From assembly GCA_016720805.1 (NCBI GenBank), contig JADKJZ010000014.1, positions 1,053,162 through 1,117,161 on the forward strand: a stretch of DNA of 64,000 nucleotides, given 5' to 3'. Within the stretch, counting starts at the first letter, position 1, and the number at the start of each line of letters is the position of its first letter. The notes below the pieces were generated by a model. It made no database searches. It was not told the origin of the DNA and worked only from the letters and a program-made list of their open reading frames with translations. Below are positions 4,649 to 52,469 of this stretch, piece after piece. The translations under genes were made by a program, and so were the position numbers. This DNA is from Gemmatimonadota bacterium (GTDB taxonomy: Bacteria; Gemmatimonadota; Gemmatimonadetes; Gemmatimonadales; GWC2-71-9).

Positions 4649-4650
4649 CC

Positions 4651-5217: not shown

Positions 5218-5326
5218 CGGTCCGTGGGGTTGGGAGGGATACCGGATACTCCCCCGGCACGGGGGTGGCGTCAAGGTGGGGGGCGGGACGGGCTTGGCCA
5301 CCCCCCTCCGGCTATATTTCCCAGTT

Positions 5327-10123: not shown

Positions 10124-11122
10124 GTGGAATTCTCCGTCGTCCCAGTGCAGGCAGAGCGGCTCGACCGCTATCTCGCCGATCAGTTGCAACTCTCGCGCAC
10201 CGTGGCAGCGCGCATAGTCGCCGCCGGCCACATTCGCTGCGGCGCCAAGGTGCTCCGCGCATCGCACCTCCTGGCGCGCGGCGACGTCGTCACCGTCGAC
10301 ATTCCCGAGACCGAGGAACCGCGGCGGATCACGCCGAATCCGATCGAGCTGACGGTCATCCACGAAGACGAGGACCTCGCCGTCATCGACAAGCCGGCGG
10401 GCCTCGTCGTGCATCCTGCCCCCGGGCACTGGGATGACACGCTGGTGAACGCCCTTGTGGCCCGGGGCACCACGCTCGCCGGTGGTGCCGAGGGGCGGCC
10501 CGGCATCGTGCACCGGCTCGACCGCGACACCAGTGGACTGCTGATTGTTTCCAAGACGGACCTGGCACACCGTCGACTCGGGCAGATGATTGCCGCTCGG
10601 CGCGTCTCGCGGGTGTACGCCGCCATGGTCTGGGGCCACCTCGACGAGGAGAAGGTGATCATCGAGGCGCCGCTGGCACGGCACCCGAAGGACCGGAAGC
10701 GGATGTCGATCCAGGCCGATGGGCGGGCCGCGCGGACCGACGCCTTCCCGATCGTCCGGCTCGGGCCGGTCTCGATTGTCCGGCTCGAGCTGCACACCGG
10801 CCGAACTCACCAGATCCGCGTCCACCTCGAGTCGATCGGGCACCCCATCGTGGGCGACCCGGTCTACCCCGGCGGTGGCGCCAAGCGAATCACCGGGGTG
10901 GGGAAGGCCAAGGCGAAGGAACTCGAAGCCCTGGCCCCCCGGCAGGCACTTCACGCCGCCCTTCTCGCGTTCCGCCACCCGAGCAGCGGGGTGCCGCTGG
11001 AGCTGCGTTCGGCCTGGCCCGCTGACCTCTGGCCCCTGCTGCAGGCCGCCGGCGCCGGGGACCTGACGATGCCGCGGGAAGAGGTCCTGGACGCGATTGG
11101 CTTCTTCGGGTCGGATGGCTGA
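10124..11122 (+). CDS. rluD: RluA/RluD-family 23S rRNA pseudouridine synthase
   Basis: N-terminal S4-like 'RLDRYLADQL', catalytic 'HRLDRDTSGLLIVSK', 'HQIRVH'. Start set at the first in-frame GTG after the lspA stop (uncertain). Confidence 0.85.
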   Translation: MEFSVVPVQAERLDRYLADQLQLSRTVAARIVAAGHIRCGAKVLRASHLLARGDVVTVDIPETEEPRRITPNPIELTVIHEDEDLAVIDKPAGLVVHPAPGHWDDTLVNALVARGTTLAGGAEGRPGIVHRLDRDTSGLLIVSKTDLAHRRLGQMIAARRVSRVYAAMVWGHLDEEKVIIEAPLARHPKDRKRMSIQADGRAARTDAFPIVRLGPVSIVRLELHTGRTHQIRVHLESIGHPIVGDPVYPGGGAKRITGVGKAKAKELEALAPRQALHAALLAFRHPSSGVPLELRSAWPADLWPLLQAAGAGDLTMPREEVLDAIGFFGSDG

Positions 11123-11474
11123 GCGGGCGGGGGTAGGCGGGCTGGTTGTCCGGGTCGCCGGCACCCGCTGGTTCATCCCGGTCACCGGCGTGATCGAGGT
11201 CCTCCGCGAGGCGGTCGTGGCGCGGGTCCCGGGCACCCCGCCGGCCGTCCGGGGGATGGTCAATCACCGCGGCCGGGTGCTGACCGTGGCCGACCCTATC
11301 CGGGCATTGGGGCTGTCGGGCGATACTGGGGGAGAGGTCGACGTGGTCGTCGTGGACGCCGGGGGACACCGCTTTGCGGTGGCCGTCGACGGGGTCGTGG
11401 AGCTGGCCGCCGAGCCGCGCACGGGCCTTGCAACGTTGGACCTCGACCAGGTCGCGACCGCGATCTTTGCCTGA
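11115..11474 (+). CDS. cheW: CheW-like coupling protein
   Basis: 'VVRVAGTRWFIPVTGVIEVL ... VPGTPPAVRGMVNHRGRVLTVADP' fits the CheW fold. ATG at 11115 (TTG at 11097 also possible) overlaps the rluD stop. Confidence 0.8.
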   Translation: MAERAGVGGLVVRVAGTRWFIPVTGVIEVLREAVVARVPGTPPAVRGMVNHRGRVLTVADPIRALGLSGDTGGEVDVVVVDAGGHRFAVAVDGVVELAAEPRTGLATLDLDQVATAIFA

Positions 11475-11494
11475 CCCTTCAGCCGGAGGCCAGC

Positions 11495-11860
11495 GTGGCC
11501 CATCGGGTGCTCATCTGCGACGACGCGATCTTCATGCGAACCATGATCGCCGACATTCTCACCGGGGCCGGCTATGACGTCGTCGGCGAGGCCGAAAGCG
11601 GCTTGCAGGCCGTCGAGCGGTACAAGGCGCTCCTCCCCGACATCGTGACCATGGACATCGTCATGCCGGACATGGGCGGAATCGACGCCGTCCGGGCGAT
11701 CGTCACGGCCCACCCCGACGCCAAGATCCTGATGTGCTCCGCCATGGGGCAGCAGGCGCTCGTGGTCGAGGCGATTCAGGCCGGCGCCAAGGACTTCGTC
11801 GTCAAGCCGTTCCAGCCGGCCCGCGTCCTCGAGGCCGTCCAGCGCGTTATGGCGGGATGA
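11495..11860 (+). CDS. cheY: CheY-like single-domain response regulator
   Basis: Receiver residues are present: 'VLICDD', 'DIVTMDIVMPDMGG', 'ILMCSA', 'VVKPF'. GGAGG lies 6 nt upstream of the GTG start. Confidence 0.9.
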   Translation: MAHRVLICDDAIFMRTMIADILTGAGYDVVGEAESGLQAVERYKALLPDIVTMDIVMPDMGGIDAVRAIVTAHPDAKILMCSAMGQQALVVEAIQAGAKDFVVKPFQPARVLEAVQRVMAG

Positions 11861-13356
11861 CCGAGGCGCGGCGGGCGCGGTACGTCGCGCTCTTCGCGGC
11901 GGAGTCGCGCTCGCTGCTGGCCGGCGCGCGCCGCGCCCTCGCGGCCTGGCTCGACGCCCCCGCCGAGCGCGCCCCGGCCGACGAAGTCTTCCGCACGCTT
12001 CACACCATCAAAGGAATGGCCGCCTCGCTCGAATACGAGGCGATCGCCGAACTGGCGCACACCACGGAGAGCGCGCTGGTCGCCGTGCGCGACAGCGGGG
12101 ACCCGGCGGACCGGACCTGGCTTCGTGACCTCGAGGCGACCCTCGACCAGATCGCCCTCGGCTGCGAAGCCGCCGCCGCGGCCGAAGGGGAGGCTGCACC
12201 GGGCGAACAGGCCGCCGCACCGGCCCGCATCGTCCGCGTCGACCTCGATCGCCTCGACGCGCTGTTCGAGGACCTCGGCGGGTTGGTGACCGCTCGGCAG
12301 GAACTCGAACGCCACGCCGAGCGGGACACCCTCTCGCCGGTGGCTCGTGCGGCGCAGGTGATGGCGCGCCGCCTCGACACGCTCCAGGACCGGATTCTCC
12401 ATGTTCGCCTCGCCCCCTTGAGCGAGGTGTTCGAGCGAATTCCGCCGATCGTGCGCGACCTTGCCCGGCAGCTTGGCAAGGAGGTGACGGTGCAGGTGCA
12501 GGGCGAGGCGCTGGAGGTGGACCGGGCCGTGCTCGATCAACTGGCCGAACCGCTGATCCACCTGCTGCGAAACGCCGTGGACCACGGCCTCGAGTCGCCG
12601 GACGTGCGCCGCGCGCTCGGCAAGCGCCCCGCCGGGTCGGTGACGCTCAAGGCACGCCGTGACCGGGATTCGGTGGTGCTCGAACTGAGCGATGATGGCC
12701 GCGGTATCGATCGAGCGGCCGTCGCCGCGCGGGCGGTGGCGCAGGGGATTCTCGAATCCGATGCTTCGCTCAATGACGACGGCTTGCTCGCCGTGCTGGC
12801 GCGCCCCGGCTTCAGCACCGCCGCCTCGGTGACGGATGTCTCCGGCCGCGGCGTCGGGCTCGATGTCGTGGCGTCTCGATTGCATGACCTCGGCGCATCG
12901 CTATCGCTCACCACGGTGCCCGGGCGGGGAACGACCTTCGTGGTGCGGTTGCCGACCCGGCTCGGCATTGTCCGTGCGCTGGTCGCCTCGATCGGTGAGG
13001 AGCGGTACGTGATGCCGCTGACGCACGTCGCCGAGTTCCTGCCATGGGAGCCGGAGGCGGTGCAACACGTTGATGGCCGGGCGGTCATCGAGTTGCGCGG
13101 CGAGCTGATCCCGGTGCTCGACCTGCGGCGCTTGCTGCTCTATCGCGGCGAGGCGCCGCCGGCTCGACGTCCGGCGCTGGTGTTCGAAGCCAACGGGCAG
13201 CGGGTCGCCCTCCTGGCCGATGCGATTCACGGCCAGGTCGATGCCGTGGTGCAGCCGCTGGATCGACCGCGCGGGATGCCACGGTGGATCACCGGCGCCA
13301 CGGTCCTCGACAACGGGCGACCGGCGTTGCTGCTCGACCTGGCCAGCGTAGTGTAG
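11857..13356 (+). CDS. cheA: Chemotaxis histidine kinase CheA (compact form)
   Basis: HPt 'FRTLHTIKGMAA', N-box 'HLLRNAVDHGLE', G1 'DDGRGID', G2 'SGRGVGLDVV', C-terminal CheW-like domain. ATGA overlap with cheY. Confidence 0.9.
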   Translation: MTEARRARYVALFAAESRSLLAGARRALAAWLDAPAERAPADEVFRTLHTIKGMAASLEYEAIAELAHTTESALVAVRDSGDPADRTWLRDLEATLDQIALGCEAAAAAEGEAAPGEQAAAPARIVRVDLDRLDALFEDLGGLVTARQELERHAERDTLSPVARAAQVMARRLDTLQDRILHVRLAPLSEVFERIPPIVRDLARQLGKEVTVQVQGEALEVDRAVLDQLAEPLIHLLRNAVDHGLESPDVRRALGKRPAGSVTLKARRDRDSVVLELSDDGRGIDRAAVAARAVAQGILESDASLNDDGLLAVLARPGFSTAASVTDVSGRGVGLDVVASRLHDLGASLSLTTVPGRGTTFVVRLPTRLGIVRALVASIGEERYVMPLTHVAEFLPWEPEAVQHVDGRAVIELRGELIPVLDLRRLLLYRGEAPPARRPALVFEANGQRVALLADAIHGQVDAVVQPLDRPRGMPRWITGATVLDNGRPALLLDLASVV

Positions 13357-13357
13357 G

Positions 13358-13393
13358 AATCGATGATCGATGATCGATGATCGATCATCGATT
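13358..13393. repeat. Heptamer-palindrome element (GATGATC)n(GATCATC), hairpin-forming
   Basis: aatcgatgatcga / tgatcgatga / tcgatcatcgatt: 13358-13370 is the exact reverse complement of 13381-13393. Sits in the 61-nt gap between the cheA stop and the cheC start. Confidence 0.85.
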
Positions 13394-13417
13394 TGTCCGA
13401 CTCTCCTTGGAGCGCAG

Positions 13418-14038
13418 ATGACGAATCCCAATGACCTCGACACTCTCCGGCGCGATGGGCTGCGCGAGGTGGCCACGATCGGCGCGGGGCATGCCGCGAC
13501 GGCGTTGTCGCAGCTCACCGATCGGCGGATCATGATCTCGGTGCCGCAAGTGCGGCGCGTGAACTTCGGCGAAGTGCCGGCGATGGTGTCGCTCTTTGGC
13601 GACCATGTCGCCGTGGTGGCGATGCGGATGCTGGGCGACCTCACCGGGCGCTCGCTGCTGGTCTTCGGCGAGGCCGATGCGACGCGACTCTGCGACTTGA
13701 TCCTCCGCCGTCCGATCGGTCCGCAACGCGCCCTCGGCGAACTCGAGCAGTCCGGGCTCAAGGAGGTCGGCAACATCGTCTGCTCGGCCTACCTGACCGC
13801 GCTGTCGAACTTCATGGGGATGATGCTGCTCCCCTCCGTGCCCTCGTTGACGATCGGTCGGACTGCCGACGCCATCGCGGCGACCGTCGATCCGAACGAG
13901 TCGCGATCGGACCTGGTCTTCTGTGTCGACACAGCCTTCCGCGCGGAAGGCGCGGAGGCGCCGCTGACCGGTGCGTTTCTGTTGATGCCTGACCAGGCCT
14001 CGATCCAGGCGATCCTCGAGGCGATCCGGCTCGACTGA
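13418..14038 (+). CDS. cheC: CheC-family CheY-P phosphatase-like protein
   Basis: Two CheC repeats. The second has an intact S-x3-E-x2-N-x22-P site ('SGLKEVGNIVCSAYLTALSNFMGMMLLPSVP'); the first reads D-x3-E-x2-T ('DGLREVAT'). ATG at 13418 is preceded by GGAG; the track ORF's MIDDRSS prefix is repeat sequence. Confidence 0.75.
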   Translation: MTNPNDLDTLRRDGLREVATIGAGHAATALSQLTDRRIMISVPQVRRVNFGEVPAMVSLFGDHVAVVAMRMLGDLTGRSLLVFGEADATRLCDLILRRPIGPQRALGELEQSGLKEVGNIVCSAYLTALSNFMGMMLLPSVPSLTIGRTADAIAATVDPNESRSDLVFCVDTAFRAEGAEAPLTGAFLLMPDQASIQAILEAIRLD

Positions 14039-14039
14039 G

Positions 14040-15194
14040 ATGGCCACCCCCGAGGGTCCGGAAGCGGCGCGCATCGCGGCGCTGCGCCGACGCCTCGGCG
14101 CGGCCTCTCCCGCGACGCTCACCAACTTCGCCTGGTTTGCGGCCCGTCGCGGCAGCCACGCGGCGGCGATCGAGGCCGTGCGGGAGGCCGTGGCGCAACC
14201 CGGCGCACCACGTGCGGCGTGGCAGACGCTCGAACGGCTGGTCACGGGCCGGAACGATGGGCTCCTCCTCGCCCCGGCCAGCGCGACCCGGCACCCGCCG
14301 GTCGACATCTCCGGCGGGGCATCGGCATTGGCGGCCGCCGTCGCGGCGCACCGCGAAGGCGCCCTCGCCGTCGCGGAGACCTGCTACCTCGCCGCCGTCT
14401 CCGTCTCGCATCTCGCGGCGGCCGCGTCCGACGGGCTGGCGGTGCTCCACGAACAACGCCACGAGCAGGACGCCGCGACCAGTGCGTGGCACCGTGCCAT
14501 CGCGGGCGGTGCCCCGTGGGCCACGCACAATCATGCGCTTGCCCTCTTGCGGCGCGGCGACGTGCCAGCCGCGCGTCGCGCGATCGCGCAGGCGTTGACG
14601 GCAAGTGCACCCACGGCGGCGCTGTATGCCCTCGCGGGCTACGCGGCACTCCTCGACGGTGCGGCCGCCGATGCCCTGCAGTCGCTTGAAGTCGCCGTGG
14701 AACTCGAGCACGATCTGGCCCGCGCGCACTTCACCCTCGGCCTCGCGCATGACAGGCTCGGTCACCCCGCGGCCGCGCTCGCCGCGACGCGTCGTGGGCT
14801 GCTGCTCTCGCCGTGGTACCTGCCGCAGGTATGGCTGTTGACGCCGGTGCCCGGCAGTCTCCCGGTCGAGCTCCCGGCGGGGAGCGAGCGTCCCGGCGCG
14901 TCCGACGGCACCGACGAGGTGCTGCTGGCGCTTGGTCGTTCACTGCTCGAGACCGGACATCTGGGCGAATCGCTCGCCGTCTTCGATCAAGTGCTGGTGC
15001 GCGATCCGGCACAACCCGCGGCCCTCTTCCACCGCGGCGTCGTGCTGGCCAAGCTGCGCCGATACGATGAAGCGCTGGCGGACTGGGAGGCGGTGGACCG
15101 CACCGATCCGGAGAGCCCGCTCGGCGCGATGTCTCGCCGCCACGCCCGTTCCGCACGTCAACTCGCCGCGCTCTTTGCCGCGCGGGCGGGCTGA
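14040..15194 (+). CDS. TPR-repeat protein
   Basis: Ala/Leu-rich helical repeats with TPR-like periodicity, clearest at the C-terminus ('ALFHRGVVLAKLRRYDEALADWEAV'). Starts 1 nt after the cheC stop. Confidence 0.6.
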   Translation: MATPEGPEAARIAALRRRLGAASPATLTNFAWFAARRGSHAAAIEAVREAVAQPGAPRAAWQTLERLVTGRNDGLLLAPASATRHPPVDISGGASALAAAVAAHREGALAVAETCYLAAVSVSHLAAAASDGLAVLHEQRHEQDAATSAWHRAIAGGAPWATHNHALALLRRGDVPAARRAIAQALTASAPTAALYALAGYAALLDGAAADALQSLEVAVELEHDLARAHFTLGLAHDRLGHPAAALAATRRGLLLSPWYLPQVWLLTPVPGSLPVELPAGSERPGASDGTDEVLLALGRSLLETGHLGESLAVFDQVLVRDPAQPAALFHRGVVLAKLRRYDEALADWEAVDRTDPESPLGAMSRRHARSARQLAALFAARAG

Positions 15195-15197
15195 CCG

Positions 15198-16115
15198 ATG
15201 CACGGGCCACTGCACGAGATCGGGTTGGTCGAGGTGCTGCAACTGCTGGGACGCGGCGCGCGGCACGGGACCTTGCAGGTGGTCGGACTGGATCCGGCGG
15301 CACCGCGCACGGTCAGGTTGTGCGCCGGCAGGGTCGTCTCGGTCGAACCCGACGCGGGCGAGGCGGCCGTCGAACGAGCCCTGGTGGCACGCCACCTCTC
15401 GATCACCGATGCGATCCGACCCGACCTCGCAGCCGAGTCGCGCGACGCGATGCGGCAAGAACTCGCGATGCGGACCCTTGCGGCGATGCTGCACTGGACG
15501 CGGGGGCGATTCGACTTCGCCGAGGAGCCGGTCCGCGACGGACCGCTCGACATCGCGGTCGACACCATCCTGCTGGAATTGGTCGGGCGGGAGTCGCAGC
15601 GGGTGGAATTGGCGGCCCTTCTCGACGACTTCCACGCCATTCCGGTCTTTGTGGCGGATGATCGGCTCGCGCTGGGAACGCCACCGGAGCTCGATCCGCT
15701 TGATTGGCGGATCCTCGATGCGGTGGATGGACGCCGGGACGTCAGTGCCATCGCCGGAACCCTCGACGAGCCGCTGGAAACCGTTGGTGATCGCGTCCGG
15801 GCACTGCAGGGGGCCACTATACTTGAACTGGCGGCGGCACCGGCCAACGACGCCTTGGCGGCGCGCGCCGCCATCGAGGCGGGCCGCTACGACGACGCGG
15901 TCGCGCTGTTGGAACAGCGGGTCGGCAGTGTCCGCTCCGATCGCGAGGCGTGGCGGTTGCTAGGCCTCGCTGAAGTCGGGGCAGGGCGGTTCGACCGCGC
16001 CATCCGCGCGTGGGAAGCTTGGCAACAGGCCGACCCGACATTGGCGCAGGAAGCCGGGGCCCTGATCGCCGCCGCACGCACCATGCTGGAGGCATTGCAC
16101 GACCATCGTGAGTGA
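15198..16115 (+). CDS. PATAN/DUF4388-domain protein with C-terminal TPR
   Basis: N-terminus 'GPLHEIGLVEVLQLLGRGARHGTLQV' and later 'LHWTRGRFDFAEEP' match the DUF4388 pattern as I recall it. TPR-like tail. Confidence 0.65.
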   Translation: MHGPLHEIGLVEVLQLLGRGARHGTLQVVGLDPAAPRTVRLCAGRVVSVEPDAGEAAVERALVARHLSITDAIRPDLAAESRDAMRQELAMRTLAAMLHWTRGRFDFAEEPVRDGPLDIAVDTILLELVGRESQRVELAALLDDFHAIPVFVADDRLALGTPPELDPLDWRILDAVDGRRDVSAIAGTLDEPLETVGDRVRALQGATILELAAAPANDALAARAAIEAGRYDDAVALLEQRVGSVRSDREAWRLLGLAEVGAGRFDRAIRAWEAWQQADPTLAQEAGALIAAARTMLEALHDHRE

Positions 16116-16863
16116 TTCGTTCTCCCCTTCGTCGACGCCTGTGGGCGCGCCGTCGTTCCTCGACCTCGGGGAACGGTTGCGGCAGCATGGGCAACTCGAC
16201 GCGGCCGCGACCGTCACGATGAACGGGCTGCGTCAATGGCCGACCCTCGCCGCCGGCCATGACTTGCTCGGTCGCATCGAGGCCGATCGGGGCGATGACC
16301 GCGCCGCCGCCGAGGCGTGGGGCGCCGCACTCGCCTGCGAGCCCGGTCACCTGGGCGCGCTCAAGGGGCTCGCCTTCCTCGCCTTCCGCGGCCACGACTT
16401 CGCGGCTGCCGAGCGGCATCTCGAATTGGCCGTGGCCCGCGCGCCGCACGATGCCGCGTTGCTCGGCGCGCTCGACCGGGTGCGCAGTCGTCGCCCGTCT
16501 GGGCCCGCGGATGAACCAGTTCGACTCGATGATCCGGCCAGTGGACTGCTTCTCTGCGACGCCGACGGGATGCGACTGAGTGGAGGCGTTGGTCCCGAGC
16601 GCAATGACGACGCCGCGGATGCGGCGGCGGCGGAGACGGCCGGGTTGCTCCGTGAAGCGACCCGCAGCGCGCGGCTTCTCGGCCTCGGCGGCGTCAAGCA
16701 TCTGGTCGTCGAGTGTGCCGACGCTCGCCTCGCGGTGGTCCCGGTCGCCGCTGGCGCCGCACTCCTCGCCGTGCGGAGCGCCGCAACGCCGATCGGCCGA
16801 CTGCTGGCCATCGCACAGCGCGCCGCTGGCGTGGCAACGCAGTGGATCGGTGGATTGGAATGA
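16108..16863 (+). CDS. TPR + Roadblock/LC7-like domain protein
   Basis: N-terminal TPR-like helices. The C-terminal ~100 aa ('GLLLCDADGMRLSGG ... GGVKHLVVECADARLAVVPVAAGAALLAV') follows the Roadblock alpha-beta pattern. GTG start overlaps the upstream gene by 8 nt. Confidence 0.55.
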   Translation: MSDSFSPSSTPVGAPSFLDLGERLRQHGQLDAAATVTMNGLRQWPTLAAGHDLLGRIEADRGDDRAAAEAWGAALACEPGHLGALKGLAFLAFRGHDFAAAERHLELAVARAPHDAALLGALDRVRSRRPSGPADEPVRLDDPASGLLLCDADGMRLSGGVGPERNDDAADAAAAETAGLLREATRSARLLGLGGVKHLVVECADARLAVVPVAAGAALLAVRSAATPIGRLLAIAQRAAGVATQWIGGLE

Positions 16864-17213
16864 GTCTCGAGCGGTGGGAACGGCTGCTGTGCGAGGTGAT
16901 CGCGATCCCCGGCGTGCGGGGCGCCGCGCTCGTGGCGAGCGATGACGGTCTCGTCGTGGCCGAGGCGGCGATGGATCAACTGGACGGCGCCGATGTGGCC
17001 GCACTCGTTGCGGCGCTGGTCTCGCGCGCCACGCGCGTGGCGCGCAGCATTCCGACCGCTCCACCGCGGTTGATCCATCTCGCGGGTGACCGCGGCACCT
17101 TGCTCGCCGTCGACGCCGGCTCTCCGCTCTGGCTGGTGGCGGTCGCGGAGCCTGGTGCCGAGGTGGGTCGCCTGCGGGTGTTGTTGGGCGATCTCGCCGG
17201 GGCGGTGGACTGA
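16860..17213 (+). CDS. Roadblock/LC7 (MglB-like) protein
   Basis: 117 aa: 'IPGVRGAALVASDDGLVVAEA ... IHLAGDRGTLLAVDAGSPLWLVAVAEPGAEVGRL' is a typical Roadblock pattern. ATGA overlap with the upstream gene. Confidence 0.7.
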   Translation: MSLERWERLLCEVIAIPGVRGAALVASDDGLVVAEAAMDQLDGADVAALVAALVSRATRVARSIPTAPPRLIHLAGDRGTLLAVDAGSPLWLVAVAEPGAEVGRLRVLLGDLAGAVD

Positions 17214-17680
17214 TGCGCGTCCTCGAACCCTGGGTGGAGGCGCCGCTCGCCGAGTTCCTGCGTGAGTCCGCGGCTCGACTCGCCTTGATCACCACGGCCT
17301 CCGGCCAGGTCATCGCCCAACATGGCTTCGCCCGGTCGCTCGATGTCATGGCCGCGGCCTCGCTCGGCGCCGGCATCCTGGCCACAACCGGCGAACTTGC
17401 GCGGATGGTGGATGCCACCGGCGGCTACCGGGTGGTGGTGCACCAAGGCGTGCAACGCGGCCTCTGGCTCGCCGGCTTCGACACGCCGCGCGGACGCTGG
17501 ATCGCATTGGTCGCGTTCGGGGAGCAATCCACGGTTGGCCTCGTCCGGCTCTTCTTCCAGCGCTTCGTCGAGCGGCTCGCGGCCGCCGCCCCGCGCAGCG
17601 TGCCGGTGCGAGAGGTGCTGGCCGAAGGATTCGAGCGCGAACTCGACGCGTCATTGCGCGCCCTCTTCGGGGGGAGCTGA
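17213..17680 (+). CDS. Second stand-alone Roadblock/LC7-like protein
   Basis: 'ARLALITTASGQVIAQHG ... VVVHQGVQRGLWLAGFDTPRGRWIALVAFGEQSTVGLV' has the same fold pattern but is more divergent. 1-nt overlap (TGATG) with the upstream gene. Confidence 0.55.
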   Translation: MRVLEPWVEAPLAEFLRESAARLALITTASGQVIAQHGFARSLDVMAAASLGAGILATTGELARMVDATGGYRVVVHQGVQRGLWLAGFDTPRGRWIALVAFGEQSTVGLVRLFFQRFVERLAAAAPRSVPVREVLAEGFERELDASLRALFGGS

Positions 17681-17682
17681 GC

Positions 17683-18288
17683 ATGGCGCGCCTCGACCAG
17701 GATGCCAGGACGCTCTCGCTCACGTTGGTGGTGTATGGCGCCGCGCGCGCCGGGAAGAGTGCCTTGCTGCGGGCCATTCACGAACGGATCGCGGTGGCGC
17801 ACCGCGGCGACGAGGAACCGCTCGGCGAGCCATCCGATGTCGGCCTGCCCCTCAACTGGGTGCCGCTCGACCTGGGTGACGTCGCGGGGTGGCGCACGCG
17901 CGTCCACCTCTACGCCGTGCCGGCGCAAGAGCAGGCCGACGCCACGCGGCGACTGGTGCTGGCCCAAGCCGATGGCGTCCTCTTCGTGGTCGATGCGCAG
18001 GCCAGCCGGCTCGAGGCCAACGTCGCGGCGCTTGCCGCGCTCCACGCGCAATGGCCCGAAGGGAACGGGACGACGCGCGTGCTGCCGGTGGTCTTCGTGG
18101 TGACCAAGCAGGACCTGCCCGAGGAATTGCTGTTGGAAGAGCCCGTGCTCGCCGCGATCCTCAACCCGGAGCACGCGCCGCTCTTCCGTTGCGATCTCGC
18201 GCGGGGCGAAGGCGTCTTCCGCGCACTGCAGTCGCTCATCGGAACCGTGATGCGCCAGGTGGTTGCCTTGCCTGAGACGGCGACGTGA
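17683..18288 (+). CDS. MglA-family Ras-like small GTPase
   Basis: P-loop 'GAARAGKS'. 'RTRVHLYAVPAQ' parallels the MglA 'KTRFHLYTVPGQ' G3 region, 'DGVLFVVDAQASRLEAN' parallels 'DGVVFVADSQIERMEAN', and G4 is 'TKQD' versus NKRD. The comparison is from my memory of Myxococcus MglA. Confidence 0.8.
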   Translation: MARLDQDARTLSLTLVVYGAARAGKSALLRAIHERIAVAHRGDEEPLGEPSDVGLPLNWVPLDLGDVAGWRTRVHLYAVPAQEQADATRRLVLAQADGVLFVVDAQASRLEANVAALAALHAQWPEGNGTTRVLPVVFVVTKQDLPEELLLEEPVLAAILNPEHAPLFRCDLARGEGVFRALQSLIGTVMRQVVALPETAT

Positions 18289-18295
18289 GGGGCGC

Positions 18296-20248
18296 ATGCT
18301 GAATCCTCACGCACGGTTCGCGAGCTTCGTCGTCGGCTCGGCCAACCGACTCGCCTTCACTGCCTCGAAGGCCGTCGCCGAGTCGCCCGGGGCGGTGTAC
18401 AACCCGCTCTTCATCTATGCCCGCCCGGGCCTCGGGAAGACACACCTGCTGATGGCCATCGGGAATGAGGCACTGGCGATCGATGCCTCGCGCGTGGTGG
18501 AGTACGTCACGGTCGATGATTTCGTCGAGGCCTACCAGGCGGCGATTGCGGCAGGGCAGGCGGAGGCCTATCGGCGCCGCTTTACCGAGGCAAACGTCGT
18601 CCTGCTGGATGACGCACAGCTGCTCTCCGACCGCCGCGAGCTGCAGGCTGAGCTGCTCCGCCTGATGGATCTGCTGATGGCCGCGGACCGGCAAATCGTC
18701 CTCGCCGGTGACCGTCCTCCCGAGGAGATCCAGTCGCTGGATGAGCGGTTGATTCGCCGCTTTGCCGGCGGTCTGGTGATCGACATTGGCGCACCGGACT
18801 ACGAGACCCGCCTCGCGATCCTCACCCGTCGCAGCAACGACCGACAGGTGCATTTCGCGCCGGAAGTGCTTGACGTCGTCGCCCAGCTCCCGATCACCAC
18901 CGTGCGCGAGCTCCTGGGTGCGCACAACCGCCTCGTGGCGCAGCAGGCCGTACAGACCGCACCGCTCGCGAGCGACCAGGTGCGCCAACTGATGCTGAGC
19001 CTGGGGCACGGTGCCGTCGTGGTCGAGCCGGTGGTCGCGGAGTCGACAGTGGTGGCGGCGGACGAGTCCCCGGCGCTTGACGAGTTCTCGGACTTCCTCT
19101 CCGATCTCTCGGCGACGGTCGCGGTCCAGGTTGATCGGTGGCGGCAGCGGATCACCGAGGCAATGCTGCGCTTCGGCGCCGAAGGGATGCGGACCTCGCG
19201 CCTCGAGGCACTCCTCGCCGAAGAGGTCGCCGTCGATCCCGCCGAAATCCTCGCCCAGTACGAGGCCGACGTTGAACGGCTGCGCGTCCTCCGGCAGGAG
19301 ATCGAGACGCTCGCCCCCGCGCTGCTCTCCGAACAATCGCTGCACGACCCGGACCTCCTGGCCGAGGCGGAAGCACTCGTCGAGGAGGCGCGCGAGAGCG
19401 GTGCGCCGCTGCCCGGCCCGGTCCCACGCTACACGCTCGCCGCCTTTGCCGTCGGGCAGACGTCGCGACATGTCGTCGAGGCGATCCACACCGCCGCGAC
19501 CGCCCCCGGGCAGCGCTACAACCCGATGGTGATCGTCGGGCGTTCGGGCACCGGCAAGAGTCATCTACTCCATGCCTTTGGCCACGAATTGCGCGCCGCC
19601 GGCCTCAAGCGTGTGGCCGTCTTCGATGCCAAGCAGTTCGTCGACGACCTGGTGGCCGCCCTCGCCGATGGCTCGATCACGCGCTGGCGGCATCGGCTCC
19701 GACGCGTCGACGCGCTGCTGCTCGACAACGTCGCGGTCCTTGCCGGCAAGGAGCGTTCGCAGGAGGAGCTGTACCTGCTGTACAACCTGCTGCTCGAGTC
19801 GGGACGGCAGATGGCCTTCACCACCACGGTCACGCCGTCGCAACTGGAGGGGTTCGAGCCGCGACTCGCGACGCGGCTCGCCGGCGGACTCGTGCTCGAG
19901 CTTGGGGCCCCGGATCGGGAGGCGCGCGTGCAGGAGGTGGTTCGCCTCCTCGGCGCCCTGGCGAACGACGCCGATCTGGTCGACTATCTCGCCGCTCGCC
20001 CCGCCGTCACCCTCCGCGATACGCAGCAGCTGGTGCAACGACTGCTCGCGGCTGCGGAGGAGCGCCAGGCGCCGCTGACGTTGATCACCGCGCGCAGCAT
20101 CCTCGATGGCACTGCCGCTCCGGCGCCCCGACCGCCCCGGCGAGGCAGCGGACTCCTCGCCCCGGGTGGTGGTGCCATTCGGTCCCGTGAGAAGATGATC
20201 GAGACGTGGCCCGACATCGCCGAACGGTTGATGGAGGAGTGGAGCTGA
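18296..20248 (+). CDS. Protein with two tandem DnaA/Hda-like AAA+ modules, no DnaA domain IV
   Basis: Module 1: 'FVVGSANRLA', Walker A 'ARPGLGKTHLL', Walker B 'VVLLDDAQLL', 'QIVLAGDRPPEEI', 'LDERLIRRFAGGLVIDIGAPDYETRLAIL'. Module 2: 'GRSGTGKSHLL', 'LLLDNVAVL', 'PRLATRLAGGLVLELGAPDREARV'. No C-terminal DnaA-type HTH sequence is visible. Confidence 0.8.
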   Translation: MLNPHARFASFVVGSANRLAFTASKAVAESPGAVYNPLFIYARPGLGKTHLLMAIGNEALAIDASRVVEYVTVDDFVEAYQAAIAAGQAEAYRRRFTEANVVLLDDAQLLSDRRELQAELLRLMDLLMAADRQIVLAGDRPPEEIQSLDERLIRRFAGGLVIDIGAPDYETRLAILTRRSNDRQVHFAPEVLDVVAQLPITTVRELLGAHNRLVAQQAVQTAPLASDQVRQLMLSLGHGAVVVEPVVAESTVVAADESPALDEFSDFLSDLSATVAVQVDRWRQRITEAMLRFGAEGMRTSRLEALLAEEVAVDPAEILAQYEADVERLRVLRQEIETLAPALLSEQSLHDPDLLAEAEALVEEARESGAPLPGPVPRYTLAAFAVGQTSRHVVEAIHTAATAPGQRYNPMVIVGRSGTGKSHLLHAFGHELRAAGLKRVAVFDAKQFVDDLVAALADGSITRWRHRLRRVDALLLDNVAVLAGKERSQEELYLLYNLLLESGRQMAFTTTVTPSQLEGFEPRLATRLAGGLVLELGAPDREARVQEVVRLLGALANDADLVDYLAARPAVTLRDTQQLVQRLLAAAEERQAPLTLITARSILDGTAAPAPRPPRRGSGLLAPGGGAIRSREKMIETWPDIAERLMEEWS

Positions 20249-21870
20249 TGGCGATCAAGGGCTCACTCCGCGAAGCGTCGCTGGCCGACGTCGTGCAACT
20301 GCTCTTCCTGGGGCGCCGCACCGGCTGCCTCTCCGTGGCCAACGAGCGGAACTTCGGTTCGATCTGGTTTGACGACGGCTGGATCACCTTCGCCGGCATG
20401 GTCTCGCGCCCCGATCGCCTCGGCGAGCGCCTTCTCGCGGCCGGGCGTCTGCGTCCCGAGCAGTTGGCGCAGGCCATCGCGGTGCAGCAGGCCATGCCGG
20501 GGCAGCGTCTTGGGGCCGTCCTGCGTCAGTTGGGCTACCTCACCCCCGAGGACGTCGAGGGCGAAGTCCGCCGACAGGTCGAGGAGACGATCTACACCCT
20601 CTTCACCTGGACCAGCGGGACCTTCTCGTTCGAGGCCGGCGTACGCCCCGAGGATCCCGAGGCGGCGCTGCGGCTGAATCCCGACGGACTGCTGCTCGAG
20701 GGCGCTCGACGCGTCGACGAGTGGAGTGTCATCGCCAAGAAGATCCCTTCGCTCGATGCGGTCTTCGCGCTCGAGGGCGATGTCCGCGGCGGTGCCGAGG
20801 GTGATGAGGCACTGGTGGAGACGGAGCGGCGCCTGCTGCCGTTGCTCGATGGCATTCGCACGGCCCGCGACCTGATGGACTCCACCGGGCTGACCGACTT
20901 CGAGGTGTGCCGCGTCCTGTATGGACTGCTGAGCGCTGGCCGCCTCCGGCGGGTCGCCACGGCGCCCGCCGCGCCCGCACGCGAGAGTGGCTCGCGCCTC
21001 GACGAGCATCGCAACCTCGGCATTGCCTTCTATCGCACCGGCATGCTGGCGGAAGCGGACCGCGAGTTCCGCCGCGTGTCGGAGTTGCGGCCGGAGAATG
21101 GTGAGGGACCGTTCCACCTCGGGCTGATCGCGCTGCGCGAGGCGCGCTGGGAAGACGCGATCACCCAACTGAAGCTCGCGGCCGAGCGCAGCGGTCCGCG
21201 CCCCGCCGTGCTCCACAACCTTGCCCTCGCGTTCGAGGCGCTTGGTCGACTCGACGAGGCCGACGCCGCCCTCTCCGAGGCGATCCAGCGCGAGAAGGAC
21301 GACCCGCGACTCTGGATCGGCTGGGGCCTGCTTGCGCTGCGCCGTGCCCAGGGGCCGTCGGCGCTGGAGCGCTTCGCGCGGGCACGCGACCTGATTGGTA
21401 CCGCGATCCCGCCGGCCCGCTGGTACTGGGGCTGCGGCTGCGCCCAGGCGCTTTCCGAGGCGTGGCAGGATTCCCTCGCCACCGTGCGTGAGGGCGTCAC
21501 CCAGTACCCGGATCATCCGGTGCTGCGCACGTCGCTGGGGGTCCTGCTCGAGGCGTCCGGTGAAGTGGGTGAGGCCGAGGCGCATTTGCGCCACGCGCTT
21601 GGCGAAGATCCGACCATTCCGCAGATCTCCAAGAACCTCGGCGACCTGCTTTATCGGGCGGGACGATGGGACGAGGCGGAGGAGGCCTACCTGCGCGCCG
21701 CGAAGCTCGAACCGGCCCTGGGCGACGACCTCTTCTTCAAGCTCGGCAATCTGGCCTGCCGGCGGGCCGACATGGCCACGGCCCGGCAGCATTGGGAGGA
21801 AGCGGTGCGTCTCAACCCTGAGCACGCGCTGGCGCGGGCCAACCTCAGTGGTTCCCGGGCGGGTCAATGA
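20248..21870 (+). CDS. PATAN/DUF4388-domain protein with C-terminal TPR
   Basis: 'IKGSLREASLADVVQLLFLGRRTGCLSV ... LFTWTSGTFSFEAG' is a DUF4388-like N-terminus, followed by >250 aa of clear TPRs ('GIAFYRTGMLAEADREFRRVSELRPENG'). The ATG shares its A with the upstream stop codon (TGATG). Confidence 0.7.
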   Translation: MAIKGSLREASLADVVQLLFLGRRTGCLSVANERNFGSIWFDDGWITFAGMVSRPDRLGERLLAAGRLRPEQLAQAIAVQQAMPGQRLGAVLRQLGYLTPEDVEGEVRRQVEETIYTLFTWTSGTFSFEAGVRPEDPEAALRLNPDGLLLEGARRVDEWSVIAKKIPSLDAVFALEGDVRGGAEGDEALVETERRLLPLLDGIRTARDLMDSTGLTDFEVCRVLYGLLSAGRLRRVATAPAAPARESGSRLDEHRNLGIAFYRTGMLAEADREFRRVSELRPENGEGPFHLGLIALREARWEDAITQLKLAAERSGPRPAVLHNLALAFEALGRLDEADAALSEAIQREKDDPRLWIGWGLLALRRAQGPSALERFARARDLIGTAIPPARWYWGCGCAQALSEAWQDSLATVREGVTQYPDHPVLRTSLGVLLEASGEVGEAEAHLRHALGEDPTIPQISKNLGDLLYRAGRWDEAEEAYLRAAKLEPALGDDLFFKLGNLACRRADMATARQHWEEAVRLNPEHALARANLSGSRAGQ

Positions 21871-22706
21871 GCGACGAGACCCTGCCGGCACTGCAGGCAG
21901 AATACGCGCGACTCGCGTCGGCACTGGCGACCGCACCCTCGGCCGAACAGCGCGCACTGATCAAGGCCGACATCGTCACCCTGTTCCGGCGCGCCGAGAC
22001 GTTGATCGCGGAGCTTGCCACGTTCAAGGAGTCGATCCGCGAGTTGGTCGATCGCTTCAAGACGTTGCCCGGTGAGGCGGCCGCGTCGGTGCGCCATGAC
22101 CATATCGGCGCGTCGAGCTACATCGAACGTGGCTGGAGTGCGTTGGCCGCAGCGGATTGGACGGCGGCCGCGGCCGCACTCCGCGAGGCGATTGCGCGGG
22201 ACGCCACCAGTACGACGGCGCGGGCGCTCTTGGCGTGGGCGCTGGTGCGCACCGGCGAGGTCGATGCGGCGGTCGCGCTCTGCCGGCCGATGCTCGAGGC
22301 CGACCCGGCGAACGGGCTCGCCCGGGTCGCGGTCGGCGTGGCCCTGCTGCAGCGCGATCAGCTCGACGAGGCCGCCGTCCACCTGAGCCACGTCACCTCG
22401 GGCGCGAGTGCCGATCCTCGCGCGGTCCTCTATGCCCACTACTGGTTGGGCGTGGTCGCGCTGCGTCGCGAGGACTTCGGCGCCGCCGTGGAGTCGCTCC
22501 GCCGCGCCGTGACCCTGGGGCCGAACCTCGGGGAGGGGTGGGCCGAGCTCGGGATCGCCCTCTGGCATGCCGGCGCGCCGGCGGACGCGCGCGAGGCGTG
22601 GCGAGTCGGGGCCGGCATCCGGCACTCGCCGCACCAGACGCGGTGTCGCGATCTGGAGACCGTCACGGCTGCCGGAGGGACGCCGCCACGCTGGTCCCCG
22701 TCCTGA
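21867..22706 (+). CDS. Coiled-coil + TPR protein
   Basis: N-terminal helical segment followed by TPR-like repeats. ATGA overlap with the upstream gene. Confidence 0.55.
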   Translation: MSDETLPALQAEYARLASALATAPSAEQRALIKADIVTLFRRAETLIAELATFKESIRELVDRFKTLPGEAAASVRHDHIGASSYIERGWSALAAADWTAAAAALREAIARDATSTTARALLAWALVRTGEVDAAVALCRPMLEADPANGLARVAVGVALLQRDQLDEAAVHLSHVTSGASADPRAVLYAHYWLGVVALRREDFGAAVESLRRAVTLGPNLGEGWAELGIALWHAGAPADAREAWRVGAGIRHSPHQTRCRDLETVTAAGGTPPRWSPS

Positions 22707-23614
22707 CCCTGCTGCTCGCCCTCCAGGGCGGGCCGGCCCCCCGCGCGGTCGAGTTCACGGTCGGGAATGTCACCGTGGTGACCGTCCCCCGGCTGGAGCC
22801 CCTCGGCCGGCGGTTGGGTGCGGTCGCAGCCGCGCCGCAGCAGTGGCTCGGCCTCGGTCGGATCGCGCTGGGGCCGATCACCCTGGCGATCGTCCCCGAT
22901 CGCACGACCTTCCAGCGGTGGTCCCGGGGCCGACTCCCCTCCTGGGGCGCCGGCATGGCCCTTCCCAACAGCGGCATGGTGCTGCTCCGCGCCGATGGCG
23001 GTGACGTCGATGTCACCCTTCGGCACGAGCTCGCCCACGTGGCACTCCACCGCAAGGTGAAGGTCCGCGTCCCACTCTGGTTCGACGAAGGGTATGCCGT
23101 GTTGGCGTCCCGCGAGTACGGCGGATTGGCGGCGCTGCAGCTCAACCTGGCGGTGGCTGCTGGTCGGGTGCCGACGCTCGCAGCGCTCGATGCCTCGCTG
23201 CGGGGCAGTGAAGGGGATGCCACGGCGGCCTACGCGTTGGCCGCGTCGGCGGTGGCCGAGCTCGGGCGACGGCACCCGACGGGCACGCTCGATCCGCTCC
23301 TCCAGCGGCTGGCGGGGGGCACCCCCTTCGAGGAGGCGGTGCTGGCCACGACCGGCCTCAGCGCGGACCGATTTGCCGACACATGGCACTTGGCGACCCG
23401 TCGGCGGTACAACTGGGGAATCTGGCTGGCGACGGGTGGGGTCTGGGTGGTGCTGGCACTGCTCCTGGCCTGGGCCAAGGCGTATCGTCGGCACCTCGAT
23501 GCACCGCGGCGGGAGGCGCTCAACGTGGGCTGGAGCCTGCCGCCGGATGACGAACCGATTACAACTGACGAATTTCTGCCGATTCCGCTTGACCCACCCG
23601 AGTTGAACCGCTAG
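22643..23614 (+). CDS. Putative membrane-anchored zinc metalloprotease (HExxH...E)
   Basis: 'RHELAHVALHRKVKVRVPLWFDEGYA' is a gluzincin-like HExxH plus a downstream Glu. C-terminal hydrophobic helix 'WGIWLATGGVWVVLALLLAWA'. Start uncertain: GTG at 22643 gives a signal-like N-terminus (LVPVLTLLLALQG). The track ORF start at 22157 overlaps the upstream gene in another frame. Confidence 0.5.
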   Translation: MSRSGDRHGCRRDAATLVPVLTLLLALQGGPAPRAVEFTVGNVTVVTVPRLEPLGRRLGAVAAAPQQWLGLGRIALGPITLAIVPDRTTFQRWSRGRLPSWGAGMALPNSGMVLLRADGGDVDVTLRHELAHVALHRKVKVRVPLWFDEGYAVLASREYGGLAALQLNLAVAAGRVPTLAALDASLRGSEGDATAAYALAASAVAELGRRHPTGTLDPLLQRLAGGTPFEEAVLATTGLSADRFADTWHLATRRRYNWGIWLATGGVWVVLALLLAWAKAYRRHLDAPRREALNVGWSLPPDDEPITTDEFLPIPLDPPELNR

Positions 23615-23625: not shown

Positions 23626-23817
23626 ATGCCAAACTCAGAAACGCAGTCCGGGCGTCCGACGACGCTCTTCACGCGCCGCAATCTGCTCCTGCTCGGGGTC
23701 GCCTTGCTGACGCTGGTGGCAGGTTACGCGGTCCTGGTCAGCGGCTCGGCCAGCGCGGCCGCCGTGCTGCTGGTCCTCGGCTACTGCGTCCTCTTCCCGC
23801 TGGCTCTGCTGGCCTGA
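23626..23817 (+). CDS. Small two-helix membrane protein
   Basis: 63 aa with two hydrophobic helices (LLLLGVALLTLVAGYAVLV; AAAVLLVLGYCVLFPLALL). No family recognised. Confidence 0.45.
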   Translation: MPNSETQSGRPTTLFTRRNLLLLGVALLTLVAGYAVLVSGSASAAAVLLVLGYCVLFPLALLA

Positions 23818-23830: not shown

Positions 23831-23904
23831 GGGCGAATAGCTCAGCTGGTTAGAGCGCCTGCCTTACACGCAGGATGTCGGGGGTTCGAATCCCTCTTCG
23901 CCCA
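23831..23904 (+). tRNA. tRNA-Val (anticodon TAC)
   Basis: Cloverleaf read by hand: acceptor GGGCGAA/TTCGCCC, D arm GCTC-AGCTGGTTA-GAGC, anticodon arm CCTGC-CTTACAC-GCAGG, T arm GGGGG-TTCGAAT-CCCTC, discriminator A. CCA is not encoded. Confidence 0.9.
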
Positions 23905-51404: not shown

Positions 51405-51412
51405 GGCTCTCC

Positions 51413-52441: not shown

Positions 52442-52469
52442 GCGAGAAGCGAGAAGCGAGAAGCGATAA
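52442..52469. repeat. Direct heptamer array (GCGAGAA)x3-GCGATAA
   Basis: Read directly. Begins immediately after the paralog-1 stop codon. Confidence 0.9.

Follow-up and report, generated by a model that had tools for sequence, protein, structure and literature searches.

A string of fourteen consecutive genes on the + strand (11115-23614) of a 64-kb stretch of DNA from a Gemmatimonadota bacterium (assembly GCA_016720805.1, contig JADKJZ010000014.1; 70% GC; the whole stretch is hereafter called the window) probably makes up one functional system, namely an operon-encoded cytoplasmic signalling machine that is specific to the Gemmatimonadota and widespread among them. Genes were taken from stop-to-stop open reading frames (ORFs) combined with Pfam searches. 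Comparison with related loci showed that the invariant core of this system is a tandem DnaA-type AAA+ ATPase (2xDnaA) encoded beside a PATAN and/or TPR protein, usually together with a peptidase. Two regulatory layers are placed upon this core: a CheW-CheA-CheY-CheC phosphorelay, and a trio of Roadblock proteins with an MglA-family GTPase. A more specific reading, which we hold only tentatively, is that a DnaA-derived ATPase, partnered with a cyclic-di-GMP-binding PATAN-TPR protein and a membrane protease, may have been turned into a signalling effector that acts as the output device of a chemosensory pathway and an MglA/MglB switch and couples environmental or polarity signals to replication or to division or budding, and that the MglA relative of the window's clade may serve as a non-hydrolysing pseudo-GTPase adaptor.

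The first-pass annotation of this DNA had described the fourteen genes as hardly spaced, and inspection of the ORFs and their junctions bore this out. ATGA overlaps are present at 11857 (cheY/cheA), 16860 (TPR-Robl/Robl2) and 21867 (PATAN2/TPR2), TGATG junctions at 17211 (Robl2/Robl3) and 20246 (2xDnaA/PATAN2), and an 8-nucleotide (nt) overlap of PATAN1 and TPR-Robl at 16108, while the remaining gaps measure 1, 3, 2 and 7 nt. The one sizeable gap, for which a palindromic repeat had been noted, is indeed the 61-nt spacer between cheA and cheC, and a spacer of 20 nt with a GGAGG ribosome-binding site separates cheW from cheY. At the 3' end, the peptidase gene (PepMA, 22643-23614) most likely starts at the GTG at 22643, 64 nt inside TPR2, since the basic-then-hydrophobic N-terminal (signal-anchor) peptide encoded in this frame is kept in 24 other loci. 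An overlap of 64 nt is unusually long for a coupled junction; in other species it measures 64 or 109 nt, and several of them have no canonical start codon at either position. Judging from the gene packing, the transcription unit may start upstream of 11115, since the end of rluD and the beginning of cheW share 8 nt and the preceding genes ileS-dksA-lspA-rluD are likewise packed. Consensus scans, a weak kind of evidence, revealed no sigma-70-like promoter within the string and terminator-like sites at background level (6 found versus 4.8 expected).

For the comparison, one genome per GTDB species was scanned with two peptide patterns of the degenerate clade to which the window's GTPase belongs, and cluster versions with a canonical MglA, which these patterns miss, were recovered via relatives of the tandem DnaA family. 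In each of the 30 Gemmatimonadales loci recovered, one per species-level genome, the whole string is present with unchanged gene order between ileS and the division and cell-wall (dcw) genes. The junction classes, which in nt are -4 (cheY/cheA), +1, +3, -8, -4, -1, +2, +7, -1 and -4, are kept in 23 to 30 genomes, in which the proteins show no more than 45-85% identity, and the 2xDnaA stop and PATAN2 start overlap by 1 nt in 23 of 23 loci. Median protein identities across the related loci range from 49% (GTPase) to 86% (CheY). Because the junction classes recur despite this divergence of the proteins, the packing goes beyond chance, and the genome comparison provides strong evidence that the string is a selected, translationally coupled unit. 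A search for syntenic orthologues in Gemmatimonadota, Acidobacteriota and Myxococcota had been suggested. Such orthologues were found in the 30 Gemmatimonadales loci and in deeper Gemmatimonadota lineages, but not in Myxococcota or Acidobacteriota: a cluster outside the Gemmatimonadota was rejected, as the 22 non-Gemmatimonadales loci recovered with the GTPase profile (Myxococcota, Acidobacteriota, Chloroflexota, Asgard archaea and others) have no gene of the string besides that of the GTPase.

In the deep Gemmatimonadota lineages, proteins other than CheY are only 25-63% identical, yet the cluster persists. Loci L056, L061 and L053/L054 (numbers as assigned in our survey) have the full cluster between rluD and mraW, with a TPR protein of ~900 amino acids (aa) and a canonical MglA. 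Adaptation genes that are absent from the window are inserted between PATAN2 and TPR2 in these lineages, as CheR-CheD (L056), CheR-CheD-CheB (L061) or CheR-CheD-CheB-CheW-CheW (L053). The same cluster in L058 includes CheY and CheC and is devoid of CheW and CheA. In L060, ileS-rluD are followed by an MglB-like Roadblock gene, 2xDnaA, PATAN2 and the peptidase, without GTPase and che genes; the Roadblock protein, encoded directly upstream of the tandem DnaA gene, matches Robl3 with E = 4e-13. In L062, ileS-rluD are followed by 2xDnaA, PATAN2 and the peptidase only. L057, with 49% GC and at another location, encodes CheW-CheY-CheA, a STAND-like NTPase, a CheW-like protein, CheC, an 823-aa TPR protein, a PATAN protein and 2xDnaA, with no Roadblock or GTPase. 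Its cheA-cheC interval (4035-5923) holds the genes for the STAND/AAA_16-type NTPase (272 aa), a further example of an NTPase taken up by a che operon, and for a protein of 344 aa that has a CheW domain at its C-terminus. In L059, an 867-aa TPR protein accompanies 2xDnaA.

In most of these contexts, the ATPase is partnered within the core by a PATAN-TPR protein that carries an MshEN-type motif, and a membrane-anchored HExxH peptidase comes next. The core persists where che, Roadblock and GTPase genes are absent, and the che and Roadblock/MglA modules are therefore accessory layers. Wherever the cluster is full, it is flanked by ileS-lspA-rluD on one side and by the dcw division cluster on the other. 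Close to the reduced versions we also observed two bactofilin genes ~3 kb upstream in L059 (3765-4667) and a DivIVA gene a few genes upstream of 2xDnaA in L060 (2737-3573) and L062 (2275-2946), which may be coincidence.

The central 2xDnaA gene (18296-20248) encodes 650 aa, in which Pfam Bac_DnaA matches twice (280 bits in total), in agreement with the double DnaA-like ATPase proposed from the first inspection. Both halves are nearer to domain III of DnaA than to Hda, with E = 1.5e-47 (N half) and 2.9e-31 (C half) against the B. subtilis DnaA domain III in the PDB and E = 1.5e-7 against Hda. Close orthologues keep Walker A/B, the sensor motifs and both box VII arginines (equivalent to Arg281 and the arginine finger Arg285 of E. 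coli) in each half, the C-half Walker B of the window's sub-clade reading LLLDN instead of LLLDD. In distant members the box VII arginines decay, and some have lost the second Walker A. Neither domain I nor the DNA-binding domain IV was found (no DnaA_N or Bac_DnaA_C at Pfam E <= 0.01), and the N-terminus, MLNPHARFASF, contains no Hda-type clamp-binding QL[SD]LF-like motif. The NCBIfam Hda model reaches 141.8 bits against a cutoff of 194.8, on an architecture that is tandem and not single. An AlphaFold2 model (mean predicted local distance difference test score, pLDDT, 82.7) comprises two confident AAA+ modules, between which lie a disordered stretch and a helical linker (residues 267-368), and ends in a disordered tail; its best Foldseek match is B. 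subtilis DnaA domain III (8bv3; TM-score 0.93, root-mean-square deviation 1.5 A). The protein ends in a motif that is found across the whole family, ...EKMxxxWPDxxxRLxEE[WL]x-COOH, the conserved tail of the window's protein being ...SREKMxxxWPDxxxRLxEEW-COOH.

An exhaustive search of 1.84 billion representative proteins returned dozens of collinear 2xDnaA relatives of ~650 aa, down to 33% identity, and those with a named source all come from Gemmatimonadota. Apparently, 2xDnaA represents an undescribed protein family. Its members are labelled 'chromosomal replication initiator' or 'DnaA/Hda family protein' in the databases, and the window's protein passes the NCBIfam DnaA equivalog TIGR00362 (389 versus 344 bits) only because its two domain-III copies add up. 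These initiator labels are likely a systematic misannotation in Gemmatimonadota. A role of the cluster in anti-phage defence was also considered and rejected: the sole PADLOC match was one at the P-loop level, between the second AAA+ module and mad8, with no stretch that passed on its own, nine other cluster proteins gave no match, and throughout the phylum the cluster sits at a fixed place in the core genome.

These properties of 2xDnaA bear on a rival explanation, in which the protein would act on the chromosomal initiator DnaA by entering its oligomers or, in the manner of Hda, by stimulating the DnaA ATPase, and in which the che, MglA and cyclic di-GMP (c-di-GMP) layers would couple environmental or polarity signals to the initiation of replication and hence to division or budding. 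Direct control of replication would fit the likeness of both halves to DnaA domain III over Hda and the box VII arginines kept in both halves of close orthologues, as well as the dcw genes adjoining full clusters and the DivIVA or bactofilin genes near minimal versions. It also has a precedent in the domain-III-only proteins Hda and HdaA, which are known to regulate DnaA (PMC7049699). However, the N-terminus without a clamp-binding motif, the missing domains I and IV, and the decay of box VII arginines and of the second Walker A in distant members are at odds with such a role, and Che, PATAN and Roadblock proteins are not known to be tied to replication in any studied organism. We regard this explanation as unlikely.

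Next to 2xDnaA, the presence of two PATAN/DUF4388 proteins was confirmed by matches to PF14332 of 42.3 bits (PATAN1) and 115.3 bits (PATAN2), with a cutoff of 25. PATAN1 (15198-16115) consists of an N-terminal PATAN domain and C-terminal TPR repeats (TPR_16) and has no MshEN motif. PATAN2 (20248-21870) combines the PATAN domain with an MshEN-type insert, a winged-helix-like region and C-terminal TPRs. Its residues 57-80 (RLGERLLAAGRLRPEQLAQAIAVQ) and 87-110 (RLGAVLRQLGYLTPEDVEGEVRRQ) match the 24-residue MshEN motif, which occurs in duplicate (consensus from Wang et al., PMC5013675). The protein also exceeds the cutoff of the NCBIfam model NF053729 'c-di-GMP-binding, MshE-related' (43 versus 38 bits), and of the PATAN2 orthologues examined nearly all, even the most distant ones, have kept the double motif. 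PATAN2 is thus predicted to be a c-di-GMP receptor. In the AlphaFold model of its N-terminal region (pLDDT 79.5) the motif forms a helical insertion in an alpha/beta domain, which is followed by a winged-helix-like unit. The top Foldseek matches of this model are weak (GATOR1/NPRL subunits, E about 0.03) and can serve as a lead only. GATOR1/NPRL proteins are components of a GTPase-activating protein for Rag GTPases and have longin and winged-helix domains.

In total, five TPR proteins are encoded in the string. TPR1 (14040-15194) is a cytoplasmic protein of 384 aa that matches Pfam TPR families, and its position is occupied in other lineages by TPR proteins of 820-900 aa (896 aa in L056 and 903 aa in L054, all-TPR), TPR1 being shortened in the window's clade. 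TPR2 (21867-22706) has a coiled-coil N-terminus followed by TPR repeats that match Pfam TPR families. The protease of the first-pass annotation corresponds to PepMA, a gluzincin-type metallopeptidase in which the HExxH motif (HELAH, residue 128) and the downstream Glu (WFDEG) are intact. Its topology is predicted to comprise an N-terminal signal or anchor, a C-terminal transmembrane helix and a 43-aa acidic tail.

The claim of three Roadblock proteins held as well, two of them scoring above the Pfam Robl_LC7 cutoff and the third being recognised through solved MglB structures. In the TPR-Roadblock fusion protein (TPR-Robl, 16108-16863), Robl_LC7 matches residues 144-220 with 32.7 bits, in addition to TPR. 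The single-domain protein Robl2 (16860-17213) gave 39.4 bits with Robl_LC7 and E = 6e-8 with the Robl_LC7 protein of PDB entry 7f8m. Robl3 (17213-17680), which has a C-terminal extension, reached 18.6 bits with Robl_LC7, under the Pfam cutoff, and matched the M. xanthus and T. thermophilus MglB structures with E = 5e-7 to 3e-4; the NCBIfam MglB model aligned over its full length with 27.8 bits, again under the cutoff. Robl3 is the best-conserved non-Che protein of the string (median identity 75% in the clade, 61-63% to most other lineages with a full version and 48% in the most distant full version), and its gene directly adjoins the GTPase gene, ending 2 nt upstream of it.

The 201-aa GTPase (17683-18288) had been called MglA-type. 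Its homology to MglA is clear, since phmmer aligned residues 4-193 with T. thermophilus and M. xanthus MglA in the PDB (E = 5e-28), free of gaps over the first 100 residues. The catalytic residues that define MglA, however, have been lost: Arg53, the intrinsic arginine finger, is replaced by Val, Thr54 of switch I by Gly, Thr78 by Ala and Gly81 by Ala, so that the G3 motif TVPGQ reads AVPAQ. Neither Arg53 nor Thr54 is conserved anywhere in an alignment of 34 sequences of this clade, and the catalytic Gln82 is not conserved either, with AQ, PQ, GQ, DQ, GH, GR, LL, GS, TG and DA found at positions 81-82. What the protein keeps is the P-loop GAARAGKS (GxxxxGK[ST]) and the guanine-specificity motif TKQD ([NT]KxD); in the clade alignment no variation occurs at Gly19, Gly24 and Lys25, and conservation reaches at least 90% at Lys142 and Asp144. 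Clusters of other Gemmatimonadota lineages have a canonical MglA in this place (GPGRSGKTT, DRTLFF, TVPGQ, NKQD). These syntenic MglA proteins are 71-76% identical to each other and 54-58% to M. xanthus MglA, while the window's GTPase is only 33-40% identical to them, and its median identity among the related loci is 49%. The clade GTPase is a degenerate MglA, which we infer would still bind nucleotide. Given the loss of the MglA catalytic residues, it probably no longer runs an MglB-stimulated GTPase cycle and probably serves as an adaptor that binds nucleotide, not as a switch that cycles.

At the 5' end of the string, profile searches with Pfam and NCBIfam verified the CheW-CheY-CheA-CheC core. 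The gene for the 119-aa CheW-like coupling protein (11115-11474; Pfam CheW, 61.5 bits) was found in 29 of the 30 related loci with a median identity of 68%. CheY (11495-11860), a single-domain response regulator (Pfam Response_reg, 101.6 bits), has kept the acidic pocket DD, the phospho-Asp in 'MDIVMPD', the Ser and the Lys (KPF), and is the most conserved product of the string, with a median identity of 86% and 81% even to the distant L056. The histidine kinase CheA (11857-13356) has P1, P3, P4 and P5 domains (Pfam Hpt, H-kinase_dim, HATPase_c and CheW), with 'LHTIKG' present in P1; NCBIfam CheA models gave E = 1e-101 and 1e-73, under their equivalog cutoffs. A P2 domain is absent in the window's clade and present in the orthologues of L054, L057 and L061. 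CheC (13418-14038), of the family of phosphatases for phosphorylated CheY, scored 57.9 bits in two stretches with Pfam and E = 9e-41 with NCBIfam CheC; its second active-site motif (S-x3-E-x2-N) is intact and the first has Thr instead of Asn.

The spacer between cheA and cheC contains a heptamer tandem and palindromic repeat (13357-13393, + strand), (ATCGATG)3 followed by ATCGATC and ATCGAT. For its RNA a hairpin of 15 bp is predicted (centroid energy -21.8 kcal/mol), at a z-score of only -1.6 versus shuffled sequences. Because of this z-score and the absence of a U-tract, we rejected a function as terminator. Many related species (L001-L006, L009, L010, L028 and L029) have different heptamer or inverted arrays in this spacer, such as ATCGATC (L002), GCGAACA (L001) and GATGGCA/GCCATCA (L006) compared with ATCGATG in the window. 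The arrays are often inverted, with long hairpins predicted, and about half of the species have no such repeat. The repeats could act as an RNA element within the operon that tunes expression ratios, or could be prone to slippage.

As stated in the first-pass annotation, none of the annotated ORFs of the window encodes a methyl-accepting chemotaxis protein (MCP), CheR, CheB, or a flagellar or pilus protein; the window ORFs without a Pfam match are four paralogues at 51.4-56 kb plus a few short ORFs. Both input and output of the system had been left open on these grounds. The input can be narrowed down: CheR, CheD and CheB, which were lost in the window's clade, are encoded within the clusters of sister lineages and imply a methyl-accepting receptor encoded elsewhere, and thus a receptor-linked chemosensory pathway.

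For the signalling machine as a whole we propose the following scheme. CheA would be driven by the receptor encoded elsewhere and would phosphorylate CheY, and CheC would reset CheY. Phosphorylated CheY would dock on the PATAN-TPR proteins, a pairing that is proposed because PATAN and receiver domains are fused in cyanobacterial PatA-type regulators (PMC4316618). It may also dock on the MglB-like Roadblock protein, comparable to the action of FrzX and FrzZ on MglA/MglB (PMC10329633). With c-di-GMP binding to PATAN2, the phosphorelay, GTPase and c-di-GMP inputs would jointly determine which nucleotide or assembly state the tandem AAA+ ATPase adopts. One of the five TPR proteins might recognise the acidic C-terminal tail of 2xDnaA (EEW-COOH) as its ligand, and the peptidase may tie the complex to the membrane. 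As for the output, polarity or division and the cell cycle are favoured over motility with low confidence, because full clusters lie directly upstream of dcw, the ATPase has a DnaA-type fold, which hints at a connection with replication, PatA contacts the divisome (PMC7380572), and cultured Gemmatimonas divide by binary fission and budding (PMC7844134).

Several observations weigh against this scheme. Every mechanistic link between the modules derives from gene order and domain precedent, and the proposed docking of the 2xDnaA tail to a TPR protein from the conservation of the tail. No MCP was found among the annotated ORFs of the window or the called genes of the related 20-kb loci, although one may be encoded elsewhere in the genome. 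The binding of c-di-GMP by PATAN2 is a prediction; the two motif copies are 6 residues apart versus 5 in MshEN, and the PATAN2 model has no PDB neighbour at Foldseek E <= 0.001. PepMA is a borderline match to Pfam Peptidase_MA_2 (32.3 bits versus a cutoff of 32.4). Finally, the loci of L057, L059, L060 and L062 do not adjoin dcw, and the position beside dcw may reflect only strong regional synteny, as the housekeeping flanks are also conserved.

In a second rival explanation, the output would be motility after all: a Frz-like pathway would choose the active pole for type IV pili or another surface-motility machine, with the PATAN proteins contacting the pilus motor and MglA/MglB marking the poles. 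MglA/MglB and Frz have this very role in M. xanthus (PMC10329633, PMC4316618), the type IV pilus motor of Synechocystis is bound by PATAN regulators (bioRxiv 10.1101/2021.06.11.447907), pilus ATPases are the typical carriers of MshEN-type c-di-GMP motifs (PMC5013675) and type IV pili are encoded in Gemmatimonas genomes (PMC7844134). The canonical MglA and the CheR, CheD and CheB in the clusters of other lineages would suit such a pathway too. Against this stands that there is no pilus, gliding or flagellar gene in the window or the related 20-kb loci, that the invariant tandem DnaA ATPase and the peptidase are left without a role, and that the clade GTPase has lost residues for the MglB-stimulated cycle on which pole switching depends. 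Control of motility polarity thus appears rather improbable. That the genes have no common function and are same-strand neighbours kept by the synteny of the ileS-dcw region is very improbable: although the flanks (ileS, dksA, lspA and rluD on one side; tRNA-Val, the TPR protein, mraW and ftsI on the other) are equally syntenic in 30 of 30 loci, this is contradicted by the fixed-length start/stop overlaps kept at nine junctions across 23-30 species, by the recurrence of Che, TPR, PATAN and 2xDnaA at a different location in L057, and by modules that come and go as whole blocks while the 2xDnaA core stays constant, with CheR/CheD/CheB inserted among non-Che genes (PATAN2-TPR2) and not beside cheA.

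Directly 3' of PepMA, a 63-aa protein with two transmembrane helices is encoded (23626-23817, + strand), followed by tRNA-Val(TAC) at 23831-23904 (+ strand; ARAGORN, Rfam), which marks the downstream end of the string. The 63-aa protein is kept after PepMA in 22 related loci and also in L053, L056, L058 and L061. Downstream of tRNA-Val are a periplasmic TPR protein of 577 aa with a signal peptide (23970-25703; a lower GC of 0.657), situated between the peptidase and mraW, then tRNA-Asp and the dcw cluster, in the order mraW, ftsI, murE, murF, mraY, ftsW, murC, ftsA and ftsZ. The 63-aa and 577-aa proteins have the same position in most related loci that reach that far, including L056, L058 and L061, and could be part of the signalling system, of the dcw cluster or of neither. 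An Rfam search of the window gave no RNA element beyond the two tRNAs, and a riboswitch in the spacers was rejected. Elsewhere in the window, an 840-aa Ser/Thr protein kinase fused to TPR repeats is encoded upstream on the opposite strand (2174-4699), and a 718-aa ORF at 2-2158 has almost no Pfam match. The four tandem paralogous ORFs at 51404-55951 (+ strand; 345, 355, 351 and 376 aa) share 37-58% identity, and the leading two do not differ over their N-terminal ~90 residues. They have no Pfam match at E <= 0.01, share an N-terminal CxxC...CxxC zinc-ribbon-like motif (YSTCLFCTKDLG...VVCRHCAKWNLVPF) and lie in the region of lowest GC in the window (0.638).

The link between chemosensory and MglA/MglB-type parts took years of genetics to establish in Myxococcus because the parts are scattered there, and in the Gemmatimonadota parts of the same kinds are hard-wired in one operon. 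The PATAN-TPR scaffolds, the predicted c-di-GMP site and the tandem DnaA-type ATPase are candidates for the missing connectors. Sister lineages supply all intermediates from a three-gene core to a version of 17-19 genes with CheR, CheD and CheB, which amounts to a natural experiment, and a decayed MglA beside a conserved MglB-like partner bears on the question of which partner the Roadblock protein really serves. The mislabelling of 2xDnaA is misleading and could corrupt predictions of origins or initiators in Gemmatimonadota. If the effector reading of 2xDnaA is true, chemosensory pathways would have an output of a new class, and the DnaA fold would have a new role. Gemmatimonadota abound in soil and have been little studied, and some of them bud; a conserved polarity-type system beside division genes offers a concrete starting point. 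A chemosensory pathway coupled to a small-GTPase module is of an already known kind; the analysis extends the first-pass annotation by the phylum-wide spread of the cluster, its defined core, the former presence of adaptation enzymes, the predicted c-di-GMP receptor and the decayed MglA.

The first-pass annotation had recognised no described counterpart, and a full-text literature search, in which subscription journals are thinly covered, returned none for either the cluster or tandem DnaA-like proteins. The closest functional parallel is found in M. xanthus, where the Frz chemosensory pathway acts on the MglA/MglB polarity module (PMC10329633, PMC4316618). Both systems have a CheA/CheW/CheY-type phosphorelay, an MglA-family GTPase, an MglB-type Roadblock protein and extra Roadblock paralogues, and the canonical MglA and CheR/CheB of the Frz system are matched by sister Gemmatimonadota lineages. 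In Myxococcus, however, the modules are encoded apart and act in trans, in contrast to the single translationally coupled operon described here. The Gemmatimonadota cluster has no MCP and no recognised RomR/RomX and contains the CheC phosphatase, whereas the M. xanthus module is without the two PATAN proteins, the five TPR proteins, the tandem DnaA ATPase and the peptidase. A further difference is that the GTPase of the window's clade lacks Arg53 and Thr54 and does not conserve Gln82.

That PATAN genes occur beside MglA/MglB homologues had been mentioned in the first-pass annotation as a result of comparative genomics, and this is correct (Makarova et al. 2006; Wuichet & Sogaard-Andersen 2014, PMC4316618). 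A supplementary table of the 2014 study lists 'PATAN>MglA>-PATAN>' for Gemmatimonas aurantiaca GAU_1409, which fits the GTPase gene, one intervening gene (2xDnaA) and PATAN2. This entry is probably the present locus seen in part. The PATAN-MglA surveys recorded the adjacency alone; che genes, tandem DnaA ATPase, peptidase and operon structure do not appear in them. Actinobacterial conservons (CvnA-D) likewise combine a histidine kinase, a Roadblock protein and an MglA-family GTPase in one operon (PMC4316618), and Robl2 matches CvnB5 (PDB 3leq) with E = 3e-4. Conservons differ in having a membrane sensor kinase instead of CheA and an MglA of group 2, and they are without CheY, CheC, PATAN, TPR and AAA+ components.

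In cyanobacteria, CheA-type pathways (Tax1/Pix) set polarity via PATAN-domain proteins (bioRxiv 10.1101/2021.06.11.447907; PMC11181946); the pilus motor (type IV) of Synechocystis is a target of PATAN response regulators (bioRxiv 10.1101/2021.06.11.447907), and an interaction of PatA with the divisome is described (PMC7380572). In the PatA type, PATAN is fused to a receiver, whereas here it is fused to TPR and CheY is separate, and the cyanobacterial operons have no GTPase, Roadblock or DnaA-type ATPase. With DnaA and its domain-III-only relatives Hda and HdaA (PMC7049699), 2xDnaA shares the AAA+ fold, Walker A/B, sensor motifs and box VII arginines. It differs from them by two domain-III modules per chain with a helical linker of ~100 residues, by the absence of domain I, domain IV and the clamp-binding motif, and by its coupling within a signalling operon. 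For the Bdellovibrio hub of MglA, the TPR protein Bd2492 and RomR, the MglA homologue is reported to act jointly with a TPR-domain protein in a pole-specific process (PMC3983030). The parts of the hub are not known to lie in one operon with che genes or to include a PATAN protein or DnaA-type ATPase. The hub is also said to be linked to a c-di-GMP receptor. The tandem DnaA ATPase and the joining of all modules at the operon level set the Gemmatimonadota cluster apart from every system to which we have likened it.

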